The notes under the pieces: generated by a model
What the model saw: only the letters and a program-made list of their open reading frames with translations
The model's database searches: none
What the model was told of the DNA's origin: nothing
Source: PVC group bacterium
GTDB taxonomy: Bacteria; GCA-001730085; JADFSZ01
Direction: 5' to 3'
DNA length: 16,276 bases
Assembly: GCA_022560555.1 (NCBI GenBank)
Contig: JADFSZ010000015.1
Span: forward strand, 1 to 16,276
Part shown: positions 3,619 through 16,179 of the stretch, one piece after another
How positions within the stretch are numbered: position 1 is the first letter of the stretch
How the letters are laid out: every line of letters begins with the position of its first letter
Translations under genes and position numbers: made by a program

Positions 3619-4194
3619 TTAGCGTATGAGCCTGACACGGTTAAACGGCCAAAAAACAAGAAGCGCCTTCCCTACAAGATTTTCTTTAGGGACAAACCCC
3701 CAATAGCGGCTATCTTTACTATTGTTGCTATTATCACCGAGTACATAATAGTGATTTTCCGGAACATTGACAATCATACCCTCGGCACCGTAAGGCCCGC
3801 GATTATAGTAGTATTTATTTTTAATTTCGTCCATCATCACCATTTCACCGTCAATATAAATATTACCGCCGCGGATCTCGACATTCTCGCCTCCCTTAGC
3901 GATCATTCTTTTGATAAAATCACGCTTAGGATTCACAGGATATTTAAATACAATCACATCTCCCCTCTCGGGCTCCTCAAATTTGTAAGTAAACTTACTC
4001 ACGATAAGACGATCCTTAATCATCAGAGTGGGTATCATGGACCCGGTAGGAATCTTAAATGCTTCAATAACGAAAGTGCGTATAAGCATAGCAAGCAGAA
4101 ATGCTATGATCAGGGCTTCCGCGTATTCACGTACGATACTTTTCCGCTTGGGGTTCGTATCCTTCAAGCCGACTAATTTATCCCGAAGCCACAT
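3619..4194 (-). CDS. lepB: Signal peptidase I (S26 family)
   Basis: 191-aa ORF with an N-terminal TM anchor. It has the catalytic Ser box IPTGSMIPTL, the Lys box FIKRMIAKGGE, and box E GDNSNNSKDSRYWGFVP. It follows lepA, as in the classical lepA-lepB operon. Confidence 0.93.
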   Translation of the reverse strand: MWLRDKLVGLKDTNPKRKSIVREYAEALIIAFLLAMLIRTFVIEAFKIPTGSMIPTLMIKDRLIVSKFTYKFEEPERGDVIVFKYPVNPKRDFIKRMIAKGGENVEIRGGNIYIDGEMVMMDEIKNKYYYNRGPYGAEGMIVNVPENHYYVLGDNSNNSKDSRYWGFVPKENLVGKALLVFWPFNRVRLIR

Positions 4195-4195
4195 T

Positions 4196-4453
4196 TTACT
4201 GACCTTTCACTAAGTAATGGATACAATGGAAGCCTCTATTTGAGCCTGACGCACGGCGCGACAACGACGGCGTATTCAAAGCACTACGTTGAGGAGAAGT
4301 AACACAGAGAACAGGCCAAAGAGAGGCTTCCTCGAAGAGGCTGGCCCCTTTTGAGCTGCGACGGCGTTGCTCGTCGCTTACGTGTTGCCTTGAACACGCC
4401 ACGCTCCTCGTCTCCTTGTCTCGCTTCAAAATTGTCTCAGCCAATGTGCCCAT
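4196..4453 (-). CDS. Doubtful 85-aa ORF spanning the structured element (hypothetical small protein, or a spurious ORF)
   Basis: The ATG at 4453 lies 14 nt after the lepA stop, and the TAA stop ends 1 nt before the lepB ATG (TAAAATG). The product is Ser/Arg-rich with no recognisable domain or TM segment. There is no SD upstream, and the composition is atypical for this genome. I list it only because it fills the gap so exactly. Confidence 0.2.
   Translation of the reverse strand: MGTLAETILKRDKETRSVACSRQHVSDEQRRRSSKGASLFEEASLWPVLCVTSPQRSALNTPSLSRRASGSNRGFHCIHYLVKGQ
4199..4220. repeat. Left arm of the terminal inverted repeat (CTGACCTTTCACTAAGTAATGG)
   Basis: Its reverse complement matches 4450-4471 at 20 of 22 positions. 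It contains the complement of the lepB Shine-Dalgarno (cctttc, 4203-4208). Confidence 0.85.
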
Positions 4454-4471
4454 TATTTAGTAAAAGGTCAG
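4450..4471. repeat. Right arm of the terminal inverted repeat (CCATTATTTAGTAAAAGGTCAG)
   Basis: Pairs with 4199-4220. It contains the lepA stop codon (TGA on the minus strand, 4468-4470). Confidence 0.85.
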
Positions 4472-6255
4472 TTCTCGTCCTTTTTTATCACAGCCATAAA
4501 AGCTTCTTGAGGTATTTGCACCTTGCCGAATTGTTTCATTCTTTTTTTGCCTTCTTTTTGTTTTTCCCAAAGTTTTCGCTTTCTTGTAATATCTCCCCCG
4601 TAACATTTTTCCGTAACATTTTTCCGTAAGGCCTTAATGGTTTCCCTCGCAACCACCCGGGAGCCTATAGCCGCCTGCAGAGAGATTTCAAAAAGCTGTC
4701 TTGGAATAAGACCTTTTAATTTCAAAGCCACTTGACGGCCTTTACTTTCCGCTTCCTTACGAAAAACAATACTGGAAAAAGCATCCACAATCTCTCCCCC
4801 CACCATAATATCCAATCTTACCAAATCACTTTTTCGATATCCGAGATGCTCATAGTCAAGAGATCCATATCCGTTTGTACCGGATTTCAAGCGATCATAA
4901 AAGTCATAGATCACTTCGGATAAAGGCAATTCATACGTTAAAATCACATGCTGTTCATCCATATATTCGGTACTTTTATAGACTCCGCGGCGATCTTGTG
5001 CCAGCTTCATCACCGAGCCCACGGAAGTGACCGGACAAATAATATACGCATGGATGAAAGGCTCCCTTATCTCACGGCATTCGTGCGTTAAAGGCATTTG
5101 GCTGGGATTATAGATCCATAATTCCTTTCCTTTTTCATCTATCACTTGATACGTCACATTCGGAGACGTTGTTATGAGATTGAGACCATACTCTCTTTCC
5201 AAACGCTCCTGAACCACTTCCATATGAAGCAGGCCCAAAAAACCACACCGAAATCCAAATCCGATCGCCGGAGATGACTCCGCCTCATATGTCAGCGAAG
5301 AATCATTGAGCCCTAGTTTCGACAAAGAGTCCCGCAGGGCTTCATAATCCGCCTGATTCACCGGATAGAGTCCTGCGTACACCATGGGATGAATTTTTTT
5401 GTACCCGGGAAATACATTTTTTGTCGGCCGCTTGGAATCCGTAATCGTATCCCCGATCTGAATATCATGGCTATCTTTGATGTTCGCCACAACATATCCC
5501 ACTTCTCCGGCAGACAAAACGTCGGTTTTGACATTCGCAGCCTTAAATATCCCAATTTCTTCCACGCGATATTTCCTCTTTGATTGGATAAATAGAATCT
5601 CCATACCCGCCCGAATAGTGCCATTGACAACACGAATACAAACCACAACTCCACGATAGGAATTGTACGTTGAATCAAAAACGAGAGCTTGCAATTCTTT
5701 TGTTTCGTCTCCAACAGGAGAAGGGATTTCATTAATAATCCGCTCAAGAACACTAGGAATATTCAATCCCTCTTTCGCGCTAATAAGTGTGCACTTGTCT
5801 TCCTCTATTTTTAGAACGTCACGTATTTGCTTTTGGCATAGCTGAATATCCGCAGATTTGATATCAATTTTATTTAGAATAGGAATGATGGTCAGATTTT
5901 GAGCTTTGGCCAAACGGCAATTCACAACGGTTTGAGCTTCCACACCCTGACTAGCATCAATCACCAAAAGGGCGCCTTCGCATGCCGATAAGCTCCGGGA
6001 TACTTCATAGGAAAAATCCACATGCCCCGGGGTGTCGATCAAATTGAGAACATATCCTTTATAATCCAGGCGGATAGCTTTGGCTTTGATCGTAATACCA
6101 CGTTCCCGTTCAATATCCATGTCATCGAGAAATTGTTCTTTAAGTTCTCTGGCAGAGACCGTACTCGTTTCTTCCAATAAGCGATCGGCTAACGTTGATT
6201 TACCGTGATCAATGTGCGCAATAATACAAAAATTCCTGATCTTTGTGATATCCAT
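4468..6255 (-). CDS. lepA: Translation elongation factor 4 (LepA)
   Basis: 595-aa ORF. N-terminus IRNFCIIAHIDHGKSTLADRLLE, then DTPGHVDF and NKIDI G-boxes. The LepA-specific C-terminal domain is present, with ALRKNVTEKCYGGDITRKRKLWEKQKEGKKRMK. Confidence 0.97.
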   Translation of the reverse strand: MDITKIRNFCIIAHIDHGKSTLADRLLEETSTVSARELKEQFLDDMDIERERGITIKAKAIRLDYKGYVLNLIDTPGHVDFSYEVSRSLSACEGALLVIDASQGVEAQTVVNCRLAKAQNLTIIPILNKIDIKSADIQLCQKQIRDVLKIEEDKCTLISAKEGLNIPSVLERIINEIPSPVGDETKELQALVFDSTYNSYRGVVVCIRVVNGTIRAGMEILFIQSKRKYRVEEIGIFKAANVKTDVLSAGEVGYVVANIKDSHDIQIGDTITDSKRPTKNVFPGYKKIHPMVYAGLYPVNQADYEALRDSLSKLGLNDSSLTYEAESSPAIGFGFRCGFLGLLHMEVVQERLEREYGLNLITTSPNVTYQVIDEKGKELWIYNPSQMPLTHECREIREPFIHAYIICPVTSVGSVMKLAQDRRGVYKSTEYMDEQHVILTYELPLSEVIYDFYDRLKSGTNGYGSLDYEHLGYRKSDLVRLDIMVGGEIVDAFSSIVFRKEAESKGRQVALKLKGLIPRQLFEISLQAAIGSRVVARETIKALRKNVTEKCYGGDITRKRKLWEKQKEGKKRMKQFGKVQIPQEAFMAVIKKDEN

Positions 6256-6374: not shown

Positions 6375-7832
6375 CTAATCTTTAGATAGGCCCTTAAGTA
6401 TGTTCAATGCAGTTTTTTGGCTTATCCCGGGCACTTTCAAAATTTCCTTCTTTGATGATCGTGAAAGTTTTTTCACTGATCCAAAGTGCCTAAGAAGGCG
6501 TTTTTTCAACACGGGGCCTATGCCGGGGATAGCATCAAGGTGACTTTCCAAAAACACCTTCGAGCGTAAGGATCGATGATAGGCCAGACTAAAGCGATGA
6601 GATTCATCCCGTAAAGCTTGGAGAATCTTTCTCGCATAAGAATTACGTCCAAGTATAATAGGTGCCTTTTGGTTTGGAATAAATACCAATTCCTCTCTCT
6701 TGGCTAAGGCGGCTATGGTATAACCCATGATACCGAGTTGATCCAGCGCCTTTATCGCGCTCGTAAGTTGTCCTTTTCCTCCGTCAATAAGAATAAGGTC
6801 CGGGATGGATTCCTTATTTTTAAGTATTTGTTTGAACCGCCGGTATAAGATTTCTTCCATCATGGCAAAATCATTGGGTCCTTTTACTGTTTTTATACGA
6901 AACTTTTTGTAAGCTCTTTTATACGGTTTTCCGTTATGGAACATCACACTTACCCCTACTGAAAGCTCGCCGGATATGTTCGATATGTCATAAGCTTCCA
7001 TCGAAACAATCCGGGACGTCATCTTTAATTTTTCCTTCAGTTCAATTAAACCTCTGGTGATACCCCGAGACCACGCATCACTTTTTGCTAACGATATCGT
7101 TAACAATTTTTTTGCCATAATCCATTGTTTTTTGATCTTTGCCGCTTTCTCAAAGTCCTGTTTTTGTGAAACATCCAGCATCATTTTATACATATCACGT
7201 ATCATTGATTTTTGTTTCCCTTCCAAAAACTCACAAATTTTTCTTATCGTCTCTTTATAATGATCAAACGATTCCTTTTTGATACACGGGGCACCGCACA
7301 ATCCCATTTGATCATAGATACAGGACTCGGGATACGATTTATGTCCGACTTCCCGGGGACAGTCACGATAGGGATATTTCTTACGCACATGCGCTAAAAG
7401 ATTTTTCACGATGCGAGAGCTTGGGAAAGGGCCAAAATATTTTCCTTCCCCCTTCATAGCACGATAGCTGAATAAAACCCGTGGAAACATCTCGTGAGTA
7501 CTGATATACACATAGGGATATGTCTTATCATCCCGGAGGAGAATATTGAACGGGGGTTGATAATTTTTAATCAATTCGTCTTCCAAAAACAAGGCTTCAT
7601 CTTCCGAGGCCGTTACGTCAATATGAATATCCTTGGTTTTTTCCGTCAATTTCCGGACTTTCACCGATAATCCTTTTTTATGGGAAAAATAGGACTTCAC
7701 CCGTTTTTTTAGAGACTTGGCCTTTCCGACATATAACACTTCCCCGAGAGCATCACAAAAACGATAAACCCCCGGAGCGTCCGGAATCTGCTTGATTTTT
7801 TGATCCAATGATTGAGATTTACCTGAAGCCAT
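6375..7832 (-). CDS. uvrC: Excinuclease ABC subunit C (UvrC), an unusually short form
   Basis: 485-aa ORF. It has a GIY-YIG domain (GVYRFCDALGEVLYVGKAKSLKKRV), a four-Cys cluster (DCPRE...SCIYDQMGLCGAPC), a UVR domain (DFEKAAKIKKQW), the C-terminal endonuclease domain (MEAYDISNISGE...LILIDGGKGQ) and an (HhH)2 domain (IPGIGPVLKKRLLRHFGS...VPGISQKTA). Confidence 0.93.
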   Translation of the reverse strand: MASGKSQSLDQKIKQIPDAPGVYRFCDALGEVLYVGKAKSLKKRVKSYFSHKKGLSVKVRKLTEKTKDIHIDVTASEDEALFLEDELIKNYQPPFNILLRDDKTYPYVYISTHEMFPRVLFSYRAMKGEGKYFGPFPSSRIVKNLLAHVRKKYPYRDCPREVGHKSYPESCIYDQMGLCGAPCIKKESFDHYKETIRKICEFLEGKQKSMIRDMYKMMLDVSQKQDFEKAAKIKKQWIMAKKLLTISLAKSDAWSRGITRGLIELKEKLKMTSRIVSMEAYDISNISGELSVGVSVMFHNGKPYKRAYKKFRIKTVKGPNDFAMMEEILYRRFKQILKNKESIPDLILIDGGKGQLTSAIKALDQLGIMGYTIAALAKREELVFIPNQKAPIILGRNSYARKILQALRDESHRFSLAYHRSLRSKVFLESHLDAIPGIGPVLKKRLLRHFGSVKKLSRSSKKEILKVPGISQKTALNILKGLSKD

Positions 7833-8032: not shown

Positions 8033-8296
8033 ATGCCGAATTCATCATCAGCCATCAAATTCATGCGGCAAACTAAAAAGAGGACAGCAAAAAACATGGC
8101 TGTCAAATCAACGATTAAAACGACAGTCAAAAAGCTTCGTGATGTGATCGACAGCAAACAAGATGCAGCTCAATGCCTCACAAACGCTTTTAAGGTTATC
8201 GATAAGGGCGTCTCCAAGGGTATCCTCAAAAAAAATACAGCCAATCGAAAAAAAGCCCGTTTGTCTCTCCTTGTTAACAAAGCGGCTAAATCCTAG
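8033..8296 (+). CDS. rpsT: 30S ribosomal protein S20
   Basis: 87-aa highly basic [28 protein letters not shown]... and the C-terminal [15 protein letters not shown] match the S20 family pattern and size. Confidence 0.93.
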
Positions 8297-8811
8297 ATAG
8301 GGTTTTTCTCCGTTAGTATTTTCTGATAAGCTTCAAAGGCATTTTTTCCAAAACAGACAAAGATGACTTTTTGGATTTTCAGAAATTTTTTCAACGCGGC
8401 AATTGTTTCTTCCAGCGCGATACACGTAGCCCTCTCAAGTGGAAATCGATAAGCACCTGTGCTGATGGCCGGGAAAGCTATGGATGTAATCCCCAATTCA
8501 CTCGCCCTTTGAAAACACTTTTGATAACAACTTCTTAAAAGCTCATCTTCGTTTTTATTCCCACCCGTCCACACGGGACCAACCGTATGAATAACCCATG
8601 AGGCCCCAAGATTATAGGCTTTCGTAACTTTCGCGTCTCCCGTAGAACATCCGTTTAGTGTCCGGCATTCCACAAGTAATTCCGGCCCTGCCCCGCGATG
8701 AATAGCGCCATCGACACCGCCTCCGCCTAAGAGACTTTCATTCGCGGCATTCACGATGGCATCCGCCTTCACTTTTGCAATATCATCTTGAATAATTTCG
8801 ATTTTCTCCAT
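8293..8811 (-). CDS. ymdB: Macro-domain protein, YmdB/MacroD-like O-acetyl-ADP-ribose deacetylase
   Basis: 172-aa ORF that is colinear with E. coli YmdB as I recall it: [54 protein letters not shown]. Its start lies 4 nt after the queF stop. Confidence 0.88.
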
Positions 8812-10039: not shown

Positions 10040-10067
10040 CGCATGTCGCATGACGCACAACGCATGG
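10040..10067. repeat. Four tandem heptads: CGCATGT CGCATGA CGCACAA CGCATGG
   Basis: Read directly from the sequence in the 94-nt spacer between the xerC stop (10074) and the queC start (9979). The period is exactly 7. Confidence 0.7.
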
Positions 10068-13039: not shown

Positions 13040-13435
13040 CTACTCAGGTTTGTCTTTATCCTTTTGGTTTTTATTTTCGCTTTTCTCACCAGTTGCTTTC
13101 GGCAACTCATCTTTATTTTTAATTGCTTTTTCTGTCTTCTCTTCAACAATATTTTCTTTTTGGGTCGGCACTTCCTTTTCCTCTGATACCTCAGGCTCAT
13201 CTTGAGCTTCAAGTATTTCCTTTGGAATATCACGTGTGCCTGAAAACCGATTTGGATCGGCAAGACCTGTTCCGACAAAATCGGGGCTTGTTAAATATTG
13301 ACCGCGTTCGTCTTTTGCTATCACATGGATCTGTCCCTTGACCTTGACTTCTCTTTCAACCATATCAGCTTTGGTTCCGAAACGGTTTGAATCTAATTTT
13401 GCCGATTTTTTTACTTTTCCTTTTTGCTTTGCCAT
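13040..13435 (-). CDS. Hypothetical protein: basic N-terminal half, Glu/Lys-rich low-complexity C-terminal half
   Basis: 131-aa ORF wedged between dprA (stop 1 nt upstream of its ATG) and topA (23 nt downstream). A strong AAGGAG Shine-Dalgarno (13444-13449) sits 8 nt upstream of ATG 13435. I recognise no family. Confidence 0.7.
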   Translation of the reverse strand: MAKQKGKVKKSAKLDSNRFGTKADMVEREVKVKGQIHVIAKDERGQYLTSPDFVGTGLADPNRFSGTRDIPKEILEAQDEPEVSEEKEVPTQKENIVEEKTEKAIKNKDELPKATGEKSENKNQKDKDKPE

Positions 13436-14568: not shown

Positions 14569-16179
14569 TCAGGCTCTTGGATCTAGAAGAAAGGGCTTAA
14601 TGTCTTCTTCGGCAATATCGTTGGATATAAACACTTTCCCGATTTTTTGAGCCAGGATAAACCGTAATCGATTTGTGAACACTTTTTTATCTTTCTTCAT
14701 GGCTTTAAAAATATTTTCCGGCGATGCTTTTTTTTGATCAACTTTTATCGGTAATTTATAATCCCTGATTAGTTTTGTGATTTTTAGCATCTCCTCACGC
14801 TTCATATATCCCTCACGCACCGAAAGAGCGGCAGCCATATTCATACCGATAGCAATGGCTTCCCCGTGCCGAAATGTTTTATATCGCGTCACAGCCTCTA
14901 TTGCATGACCAAATGTGTGCCCAAAATTCAAAATAGCCCGAAGGCCCTCTTCTTTTTCGTCTTTTTCAACGACAGCCGTTTTGATTTCACAGGATTTTTT
15001 CACGATAAAATTGACAGCCTCATGATTTAAATTTATTATTTTTTTTCGATTTTTTTGAAGATATTTAAATAGCCGCGCATCATGGATAATTCCGTACTTT
15101 ATCACTTCAGCCAGCCCGGCCCTCAATTCCATTTTATTTAGTGATTTTAGAAAAGCCGTATCAATAAAAACAAGCTTTGGCTGAAAAAACGCGCCGATCA
15201 TATTTTTTCCTTTTGGATGATTGATTCCCACTTTTCCGCCGACACTGCTATCGACATCCGCCAATAATGTCGTGGGAATATGGATGTAAGAAATTCCGCG
15301 CATGTAGGTCGCAGCCGCATATCCCCCAATATCTCCAACGACACCACCTCCAAGGGTTAATACCAGACCATCTCTATGAAGACGATTTTCGATAAACTTA
15401 TCGTAAATATTTCCCAATGTTTTTTGAGTTTTATAACGTTCCCCGTCCGGGATGACAATACGATGAACATCAAATCCATATTCTTTTAAATGGATCTCTA
15501 TAGGGCTCCCATACAATTTATTCACCGTTGTATTGGTGATAATATGAATGCTTGTCCCCTGAAATACCTTTCGAATTTCACAAGCTAAAAGATCTCTGAT
15601 ATCGTTTCCGATAACGATATCGTAACTATTATGCTCCTCTAGGCAAACATTAAGGCGACTCAATTCTTTGCGCTTTTTATATATACTCATAATTTCTTTC
15701 GCGATCGTGGGAGCATCACGATTTTTTGTCTTAACAATAAAATCGGATTTTCGGTACTGAGGTATCCGCTCTTCCAGCAATTGACGAATACGCTCTTTCG
15801 GATTCGGGACCTTTAAAAGGGGCCGATGGGCTGTACTGCGTGTATTTTCCCATATCTCATCTACACTTGAATCGAGAAAAAAGAGAACGCCATTTTTTTG
15901 AAGATGTTTCATGTTTTGCTCGGATTTAACAACACCTCCGCCGGTTGAAATCACCTGGTTTCTTTTTCGAGAGTATTTTTTAGCAAGCATACTTTCCACA
16001 TCCCGAAAATACAATTCGCCTTTTTGGTCAAAGATTTCAGAAATGGGGCACCCCTCATGATGTTCAATTTCCGTATCTAGATCGACAAATTTCATGCCGG
16101 TTTTTCGCGTTAGCTCTTGGCCGACAAGTGTCTTGCCTGATCCCATAAATCCTACGAGAATAATATTTTTCTGAAACAT
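14569..16179 (-). CDS. aroKB: Bifunctional shikimate kinase / 3-dehydroquinate synthase (AroK-AroB fusion)
   Basis: 536-aa ORF. The N-terminal ~170 aa is shikimate kinase (IILVGFMGSGKTLVG, STGGGVV). The remainder is DHQ synthase (LGGGVVGDIGGYAAATYMRGISYIHIPTTLLADVDSSVGGKVGIN, RAGLAEVIKYG, NFGHTFGHAIE). Confidence 0.93.
   Translation of the reverse strand: MFQKNIILVGFMGSGKTLVGQELTRKTGMKFVDLDTEIEHHEGCPISEIFDQKGELYFRDVESMLAKKYSRKRNQVISTGGGVVKSEQNMKHLQKNGVLFFLDSSVDEIWENTRSTAHRPLLKVPNPKERIRQLLEERIPQYRKSDFIVKTKNRDAPTIAKEIMSIYKKRKELSRLNVCLEEHNSYDIVIGNDIRDLLACEIRKVFQGTSIHIITNTTVNKLYGSPIEIHLKEYGFDVHRIVIPDGERYKTQKTLGNIYDKFIENRLHRDGLVLTLGGGVVGDIGGYAAATYMRGISYIHIPTTLLADVDSSVGGKVGINHPKGKNMIGAFFQPKLVFIDTAFLKSLNKMELRAGLAEVIKYGIIHDARLFKYLQKNRKKIINLNHEAVNFIVKKSCEIKTAVVEKDEKEEGLRAILNFGHTFGHAIEAVTRYKTFRHGEAIAIGMNMAAALSVREGYMKREEMLKITKLIRDYKLPIKVDQKKASPENIFKAMKKDKKVFTNRLRFILAQKIGKVFISNDIAEEDIKPFLLDPRA

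Follow-up and report, generated by a model that had tools for sequence, protein, structure and literature searches.

Bacterial MITEs (miniature inverted-repeat transposable elements) with long hairpins, small open reading frames (ORFs) and positions inside operons are well known, as in the Correia, ERIC and BOX elements and the Rickettsia palindromic elements (RPE) (PMC10969869). Some known MITEs carry small ORFs of no known function (PMC10969869, PMC3184786). MIRUs insert at start codons and contain an internal ORF coupled to the downstream gene, and their insertion has been read as preserving translational coupling and hence as nearly neutral (PMC12548453, PMC3184786). REPs of 20–40 bp and REPINs of ~100 bp carry a GTAG or CGTC tag (PMC3733652). 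Here an element is described which fills the junction between lepA and lepB in a 16,276-nt stretch of DNA from a PVC group bacterium (contig JADFSZ010000015.1 of assembly GCA_022560555.1), the whole of which is referred to as the window. With a probability of roughly 0.6, it is best explained as a non-autonomous MITE-like palindrome adapted to operon junctions via translational pass-through, whereby ribosomes leaving the upstream gene would cross the insert and reach the downstream one.

In the window, lepA (elongation factor 4; 4468–6255, minus strand) and lepB (signal peptidase I, Peptidase_S26; 3619–4194, minus) are separated by a gap of 273 nt. The element itself spans 275 nt (4198–4472, minus). 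Read 5' to 3' along the minus strand, which also encodes lepA and lepB, it begins with ACTGA and ends with TCAGT. It is delimited by its inverted repeat, by an nhmmer profile match over model positions 1–269 (E = 1e-75) and by alignment with 10 other copies. A preliminary description of this DNA had reported a ~273-nt GC-enriched, densely self-complementary insert between the two genes, and both observations are borne out. The GC content is 0.51 over the entire element and 0.53 in 4200–4399, compared with 0.39–0.44 in the flanks. The closing repeat (4198–4229 / 4441–4472; 32 nt, 84% complementary) is the longest inverted repeat of the window, and the 22-nt arm pattern has no second match in the window even at 3 mismatches (chance expectation 0.00). 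The minus, transcribed strand folds at −118.6 kcal/mol compared with −83.7 ± 4.9 kcal/mol for shuffles (z = −7.1), and the plus strand gives z = −5.4.

Mobility of the element is well supported, as the site is polymorphic between near-identical strains, empty in distant relatives, and matched by copies that occupy unrelated junctions. An exact look-up returned no record of the LepA encoded in the window. The closest public LepA, 98% identical, lies on contig L008, which is 98.5% nucleotide-identical to the window on both sides of the junction. BLASTN aligns L008 10–1811 with window 6269–4468 and L008 1812–5299 with window 4216–728, leaving 251 bp (4217–4467, minus) as an insertion/deletion polymorphism present in the window and absent from L008. 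Where the window has the extra 251 bp, L008 has AACTGA followed by TATTTAGTGAAAGGTTAGT. Its junction, AACTGA joined to TATTTAGTGAAAGGTTAGTaaaATG, corresponds to the first 5 nt and last 19 nt of the element, a 24-nt remnant in which the 3' arm survives alone. Because L008 keeps this remnant, there is no clean filled/empty pair at high identity. In L009 and L010, whose LepA is 77% identical, the lepA-lepB spacer is 1 nt (GGTTAAtATG or GGTTGAtATG). In the Omnitrophota metagenome-assembled genome (MAG) L012 it is 9 nt without the element, and a copy lies two genes upstream, between rpe and the phosphoglucomutase gene. Loci L006 and L013 share a syntenic operon in which the element sits at different junctions, with the counterpart sites empty in the other genome at the three junctions compared. 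Ancestral-type spacers are tiny, being 1 nt at lepA-lepB and an ATGA overlap at aminotransferase-tatD.

Solo 3'-arm remnants were observed twice, at L008 1806–1830 (where ACTGA is also kept) and at L001 3700–3724, each directly before a start codon, that of lepB and of a flavoprotein gene, respectively. Both retain exactly the 3' arm, and they look like deletion derivatives that kept the arm bearing the Shine-Dalgarno sequence. The end-points of the L008 deletion showed no microhomology.

Twelve full copies of the family were analysed, the one in the window and 11 others from Omnitrophota-type MAGs and from metagenomes. Scanning for the exact 22-nt arm sequence of the window recovered 3 genome loci and 1 metagenome locus, namely one full copy each in an Omnitrophota MAG (L003) and on a metagenome contig (L004) and, within a single 'Planctomycetia' MAG, one copy at the end of a contig (L002) and one solo arm (L001). 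This pattern was too narrow and underestimated abundance; matches were few because most copies carry a different, covarying arm, ACTGAGCC..., with variants such as ACTGAGCCTTCACTAAATAATGG. A translated-ORF search yielded 54 predicted proteins, mostly of 83 aa, unnamed and without a Pfam domain, and a profile search of 1.84 billion cluster representatives yielded 69 clusters at 50% identity (E ≤ 0.001). The contigs of seven ORF proteins and one cluster mate gave eight more copies. A ninth, L013a, which had not been called as a gene, was added by nhmmer; run over all fetched loci, it found additional copies nowhere but in L013. Copies are 267–290 nt long, with a family length of ~269 nt.

All 12 full copies lie between co-directional genes, including one that is itself inverted (L014). 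Their upstream and downstream neighbours include an aminotransferase gene and tatD (L006), rce1 and thiL (L013b), metG and an aminotransferase gene (L013a), rpe and the phosphoglucomutase gene glmM (L012), an SH3-domain gene and an M50 peptidase gene (L011), clpP and an aminotransferase gene (L015), and ileS and an ABC-2 permease gene (L004). The flanking genes are functionally unrelated across copies, with lepB, tatD, thiL, glmM, and genes for an M50 peptidase and an ABC permease, xseA and a serC-like gene among them. Two copies lie 3 kb apart in L013, and on contig ORMF011097920.1 the copies L006 and L015 are separated by 39 kb. The search for copies elsewhere, which the preliminary description had proposed as a check, thus identifies a mobile repeat, with homologues at unrelated gene junctions and some twice per contig. 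The nearest relatives also lack the spacer, so the element is neither a riboswitch nor an RNA gene specific to lepA-lepB. Of the earlier proposal of an undescribed structured RNA or MITE, the mobile repeat, its novelty and its conserved structure stand, and the locus-specific RNA falls away.

The two L013 copies (5077–5344 and 8328–8594), which share one operon, have nearly identical left halves and differing closing arms and right halves, which suggests recombination or mosaicism between copies. Four predicted proteins of 200–258 aa (P0197, P0210, P0223 and P0224) contain a stretch of 45–50 residues matching the element ORF; it therefore seems that some copies are joined to host coding sequences or lie within them, in the manner of Rickettsia palindromic elements. 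Once the relatives at 98% and 77% are set aside, LepA matches reach at best ~60–61% identity, the top named ones being Candidatus Omnitrophota MAGs. L003 and L012 are Omnitrophota MAGs from New Zealand groundwater, and L005 comes from a Hainich groundwater sample. Tentatively, the window lineage is placed in or near Omnitrophota, as an uncultivated group.

The family is previously undescribed, with nothing corresponding to it in Rfam, Pfam, NCBIfam or the searched literature. Rfam gave no family match for the window copy and four other copies, at gathering thresholds and at E ≤ 10, which agrees with the earlier failure to recognise any known RNA class and leaves novelty standing. On L004, L014 and L013 it returned chance-level matches only, which scored far under the gathering cut-offs and either lay outside the element or had no relation to it. 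ARAGORN found no tRNA or tmRNA, and the internal ORF had no match in Pfam or NCBIfam. Phage, plasmid and IMG/VR collections, searched by DNA and peptide pattern, held nothing similar. A promoter/terminator scan found no signal on the transcribed strand within the element. Literature searches combining Omnitrophota with MITE or palindromic repeats returned no relevant paper and no description of the element, or of mobile repeats of Omnitrophota in general.

Alignment of 11 copies (mean identity 76%, range 64%–97%) and consensus folding by RNAalifold give a Y-shaped structure, consisting of a closing stem P1 of ~29 bp, left and right hairpin domains, and a small central hairpin of the form CCCC-loop-GGGG. 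P1 is the terminal inverted repeat, with its 5' arm at 4443–4472 and its 3' arm at 4198–4227 (both minus). The left domain (4339–4442, minus) has a ~20-bp base helix, P2 (4442–4418 with 4362–4339), and a variable tip hairpin (4399–4395 with 4386–4382), with a purine-rich GAGGAG loop between the two in the consensus fold. The right domain (4228–4331, minus) has helices of 8, 7 and 4 bp, comprising P3 (4331–4324 with 4235–4228) and P3b (4316–4299 with 4259–4243), together with a variable tip hairpin (4288–4283 with 4275–4270), and contains a CTCCTC loop complementary to the GAGGAG of the left domain.

This Y fold is paired in 94.1% of cells and shows double-sided change in 42 of 84 pairs, with none of 500 shuffles as high and slid-alignment controls at 31–39%. 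P1 alone is 95% paired with compensatory change in 18 of 28 pairs, and its variants CCTTTCACTAAATAATGG, GCCTCCGGGTAAATAATGG, GTTTTCTCCAAATTATGAGC and CCAACGTATAATTAATAGG each occur with a matching pairing partner. The terminal ACTGA/TCAGT is the sole invariant arm sequence, present in 12/12 copies. The covariation check called for by the preliminary description therefore finds a conserved secondary structure with abundant compensatory change, which exceeds what MITEs usually show. Its closing helix is supported by such changes in other copies, as are the CGTGTT/AACACG hairpin, now the left tip hairpin of the consensus, and the long-range pairing GGAAGCCTCT/AGAGGCTTCC, now helix P3. The proposed GCGACG/CGTCGC and GGCCA/TGGCC hairpins fall outside the family consensus fold.

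A single long hairpin was rejected as the conserved fold. It is the minimum-energy fold of the window copy and the thermodynamically deeper state in several copies. Mapped from the window, it is 57–73% paired beyond P1; after re-optimisation, double-sided change beyond P1 affects 7 of 45 pairs compared with 24 of 56 in the Y fold, and its support comes mostly from invariant columns. The element may be able to switch between the Y fold and the long hairpin. A related observation concerns the conserved GAGGAGGAGG of the left-domain loop and CCTCCTCCTC of the right-domain loop (window 4291–4296 / 4404–4409), which are unpaired in the Y fold and mutually complementary. They could form a loop-loop contact or mediate a switch to the rod fold. 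The GAGGAG/CTCCTC complement pointed out earlier is conserved; as both motifs are invariant, they carry no covariation signal. GAGGAGGAGG is also a perfect Shine-Dalgarno sequence and CCTCCTCCTC an anti-Shine-Dalgarno mimic.

The second conserved property of the family is an open frame. In the direction of transcription, the first 36 nt contain stops in three phases, TGA at 3, TAA at 14 and usually TGA at 34, and an ATG occupies positions 20–22 in 11/12 copies. The frame of this arm ATG is stop-free in 12/12 copies, reaching TAA, TAG or TGA at or just past the 3' edge, with the exceptions that L013b opens at an internal ATG and that the stop of L013a comes 12 nt early. In the window, the 5' arm of P1 holds the lepA TGA (4470–4468), an in-frame TAA (4459–4457) and the internal ATG (4453–4451). 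The resulting 85-codon ORF (4196–4453, minus) is co-directional with lepA and lepB and ends on a TAA (4198–4196, minus) which spans the element edge and lies 1 nt ahead of the lepB ATG. The other frames have 2–4 stops each, as in dinucleotide or block shuffles (mean 2.0–2.9), for which the probability of a given frame being open is 0.04–0.12. The symmetry of the ends gives the opposite strand an identical layout, whose equivalent frame is open in 7/12 copies. The L014 element is inverted with respect to its neighbouring genes, and there the ORF co-directional with those genes is the one on the other strand.

The encoded peptide is not what is conserved. Codon positions 1, 2 and 3 have entropies of 0.57, 0.47 and 0.58, so that codon periodicity is absent, and copies differ in the frame used for the middle and C-terminal segments before returning to ...HYLVKGQ*. 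It is therefore openness that is conserved. Two copies carry nested insertions: in L006 the left domain contains a small, perfect hairpin of 21 nt (CCTGCCTGCCGGACAGGCAGG; 10040–10060), and in L011 the central loop contains an extra 12 nt (copy within 7216–7503). Both are multiples of three, and the frame is thus kept. Open-frame statistics were confined to the four unbiased copies, those recovered purely by searching DNA (window, L003, L004 and L013a), with protein-ascertained copies not counted. The probability that all four are open is ~0.003 under random substitution from an open ancestor (0.12 x 0.22 x 0.26 x 0.42) and ~3e-5 if they are treated as independent copies, with indels netting to multiples of three adding further.

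The edges of the element are closely fitted to the neighbouring genes. Its terminal TGA is the upstream stop codon in 6/12 full copies (window lepA, L003, L006, L012, L013b and L014) and in the L008 remnant. The upstream ORF runs into the element in 8 copies, so that the terminal TGA is used in 6/8 (p ~0.02 under random phase). In most copies the downstream start codon lies 0–8 nt past the 3' end, with a purine-rich motif (GAAAGG, GAAGG, GGAGG or GGAGAAAA) 6–9 nt before it. In the window, lepB starts 4 nt past the element end, and the 3' arm carries a Shine-Dalgarno-like GAAAGG (4208–4203, minus) 8 nt before the lepB ATG (4194–4192), paired within P1 to CCTTTT of the 5' arm. Among junctions whose start lies 0–4 nt past the element, motif, spacer and start read GAAAGGtcagtaaaATG for lepB in the window, GAAAGGtcagtagtATG for the ABC-2 permease gene of L004, GAAAGGtcagtaggcATG for the flavoprotein gene of L001, GAAAGGtcagtaGTG for xseA in L002, GAAGGctcagtATG for tatD in L006, GGAGGctcagtcTTG for the M50 peptidase gene of L011 and GAAAGGttagtaaaATG for lepB beside the L008 remnant. 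In L012 the phosphoglucomutase gene (glmM) starts 1 nt beyond the element. The internal stop lies −1 to +2 nt from the downstream start in the window (TAAaATG), L004, L001, L002 and L012, and overlaps it in L006; in L015, L013a, L005 and L003 it does not adjoin the start. Adjacency to both genes is partly trivial because ancestral spacers are 1 nt or overlapping and a tolerated insert must touch both. Yet such a spacer also means that the original Shine-Dalgarno sequence, inside the 3' end of the upstream gene, is displaced by ~270 nt, so that an insert must bring a replacement.

From these features we infer each translation step of the pass-through model. The element would be co-transcribed with the operon, in keeping with the lack of promoter or terminator signals on the transcribed strand, and its terminal ACTGA would give the upstream gene its stop, here the lepA TGA. 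Ribosomes finishing lepA would reinitiate at the ATG of the 5' arm, 14 nt on, and traverse the stop-free frame through the hairpin, melting P1, which would otherwise sequester the Shine-Dalgarno sequence. With the frame ending on TAA or TAG at the 3' edge, 1 nt before the lepB ATG, and the 3' arm supplying GAAAGG 8 nt ahead of it, lepB could stay coupled to lepA. The 270-nt stretch would be kept covered by ribosomes, avoiding Rho polarity, and the peptide itself would be functionless. Translational coupling has two accepted models, RNA unfolding and reinitiation, and the pass-through proposal corresponds to both (PMC12548453).

Several observations weigh against this explanation. The open frames are partly an ascertainment effect, because 7/12 copies and one on the same contig came via predicted proteins; the unbiased set comprises four copies (p ~3e-5 to 3e-3). 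No Shine-Dalgarno sequence precedes the internal ATG, so that initiation would depend on termination-reinitiation across 14 nt, and in L013b the arm variant lacks both the ATG and any Shine-Dalgarno-like motif. The upstream gene ends 21–86 nt short of the element in 4/12 copies (L004, L005, L007 and L015), and in L015, L013a and L005 the next gene begins 39–130 nt downstream with its own Shine-Dalgarno sequence. With regard to structure, G-U versus A-C combinations show no strand preference (6 vs 6 in P1; 13 vs 11 in the Y fold, one invariant pair excluded), and covariation within a palindrome may also arise by neutral arm-to-arm correction. With regard to mobility, copy number per contig is low at 1–2, and a search of 12 flank pairs established no target-site duplication, with TA flanking both sides in 5/12 copies only. 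If the ends are taken as CTGA...TCAG, a 3' A is found in 9/12 copies and a 5' T in 5/12. No autonomous partner or transposase gene was found in the fetched flanks, and no RAYT or TnpA gene in ~200 kb of flanking sequence.

How the element moves may be linked to its fold. Since the arms covary and are not conserved, it is more likely that the mobility machinery reads the folded single strand with its ACTGA/TCAGT tips than a double-stranded terminal sequence. Taken jointly with pass-through, this would make the element an orientation-independent cassette of stop, restart, open frame, Shine-Dalgarno sequence and stop that colonises the 1-nt junctions of essential coupled operons and is moved by structure-reading machinery. 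This combined reading is put forward tentatively, as one that has somewhat more chance of being wrong than right.

The alternative that survives best is a plain selfish MITE, which is mobile but whose open frame, terminal TGA and purine-rich 3' arm would be by-products of the arm sequence and of survivorship in short spacers. Downstream genes would then be expressed by ordinary initiation or after cleavage of the hairpin by RNase III, as for Correia elements, where RNase III processing of MITE hairpins is documented (PMC10969869). The tiny ancestral spacers, into which any tolerated insert must fit against both stop and start, are compatible with this account, as are the small number of unbiased copies behind the open-frame statistics and the copies that lie away from a start or stop codon. 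It fits less well that stop depletion is confined to one frame per strand, with no general compositional effect, and that the frame survives compensating frame shifts and insertions of 21 and 12 nt. In addition, the direction of the ORF tracks transcription even in the inverted L014, and the remnants retain the arm with the Shine-Dalgarno sequence. A plain MITE is regarded as unlikely, though it is the leading competitor of the pass-through element.

A host-functional structured RNA that spread secondarily, whether a cis-regulatory leader, a processing signal or a stable small RNA (sRNA), is a very improbable explanation. The strongly conserved multi-helix fold with its compensatory changes speaks for it, as do a GC content above that of the flanks and an orientation bias, with 5/5 copies from DNA searches in 'sense' and 52/54 ORF matches of the sense type. 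Against it, the junction lacks the element in the 98.5%-identical strain and in all more distant relatives, and the genes flanking the other copies have no functional relationship. There is likewise no Rfam match, no excess of G-U over A-C in P1 or the Y fold, and no promoter or terminator signal on the transcribed strand. A genuine gene for a protein of ~83 aa, palindromic at the DNA level by chance, is scarcely credible: although every copy has an ATG and a stop, the ORF has been called 54 times and the N-terminal consensus MGTLAEPILERDKERGGGIV recurs, the three codon positions are equally variable, the middle and C-terminal segments lie in different frames among copies, the opposite strand is as open in 7/12 copies, no Pfam or NCBIfam family matches, and the sequence is of low complexity and rich in Arg, Ser and Gly.

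The remainder of the window has the gene order aroK-aroB, dprA, an unidentified ORF, topA, a xerC/D-like gene, queC, queF, macro, rpsT, uvrC, lepA, lepB, pgsA, der and plsY, all on the minus strand except rpsT (8033–8296, plus). Shikimate kinase and 3-dehydroquinate synthase are encoded by a single 536-aa ORF (14569–16179, minus), an aroK-aroB fusion. The ORF between dprA and topA (13040–13435, minus) encodes 131 aa and has no Pfam match. The longest pgsA ORF starts with TTG (at 3659) and shares 41 nt with the end of lepB (3619–3659); the near-identical L008 gene call starts later, giving 184 aa, and the true pgsA start is probably downstream of the TTG.

The identification of the element explains a 273-nt gap in a normally contiguous essential operon and does away with a false lead towards a novel riboswitch or sRNA. 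The candidate phylum Omnitrophota and its neighbours thereby gain a MITE-like family. In public databases the family ORFs of ~83 codons are being called as hypothetical proteins, with 69 clusters or more affected, and they ought to be marked as derived from a repeat. If true, pass-through would mean that the MIRU strategy, in which a selfish insert is hidden in an operon by its own coupled ORF, had been invented independently a second time, here with a symmetric palindrome that works both ways. This would bear on the tolerance of mobile DNA in compact genomes and would matter for designing neutral insulator or coupling cassettes. Should the joint cassette reading also hold, MIRU-like coupling would be combined with a transposition substrate read by structure, as in attC sites or REPINs. 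Two traits are unusual, namely arms conserved in structure and not in sequence, and an orientation-independent translational cassette.

Compared with known repeats, the element has the general features of a MITE. It is small (267–290 nt, with the usual cut-off at ~600 bp), lacks a transposase gene, has terminal inverted repeats, and occurs in several dispersed copies with filled and empty orthologous sites. It resembles the long-hairpin MITEs, Correia/NEMIS of Neisseria, ERIC/IRU of enterobacteria, RUP and BOX of pneumococcus and Nezha of cyanobacteria, in being under 300 bp with a very stable stem-loop and in having several copies per genome, filled/empty sites and positions inside transcription units. 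To our knowledge it has no sequence similarity to Correia/NEMIS, ERIC/IRU, RUP, BOX or Nezha. It differs from them in that its arms covary with only 5 terminal nucleotides invariant, in its Y-shaped conserved fold with two internal hairpin domains, in its uncultivated Omnitrophota-type hosts, and in having no demonstrable target-site duplication and no identified parent insertion sequence (IS).

Other comparisons are more limited. An Rfam-type RNA family does not describe the element, which has no covariance-model match and is absent at the orthologous locus in L008, L009, L010 and L012. REPINs and REP doublets, moved by RAYT (Y1/HUH) enzymes, and IS200/IS605-type transposition likewise keep pairing over sequence, have invariant tips and are intergenic. 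The element falls outside the REP/REPIN definition, as it ends in ACTGA/TCAGT, has a unit of ~270 bp and carries no GTAG/CGTC tag. RPEs are also palindromic selfish DNA that keeps a frame open and is compatible with translation of the host message (PMC10969869). They mostly lie in-frame inside protein-coding genes with a conserved peptide, whereas the present copies are intergenic with an unconserved peptide, and the element ends the upstream frame in all three phases (stops at 3, 14 and 34) before restarting.

By analogy, MIRUs are the closest functional counterpart. They too are mobile-looking, lie in polycistronic operons oriented with their neighbours, and carry a small ORF that adjoins or overlaps the neighbouring stop and start (PMC12548453, PMC3184786). 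The element is nevertheless not a MIRU family member. MIRUs occur in another phylum and are unrelated to it in sequence. Their units of 40–100 bp are often in tandem, whereas the element is a single, non-tandem 270-nt palindrome with a 30-bp closing stem, and, unlike MIRUs, its symmetric ends give the same signals in either orientation.

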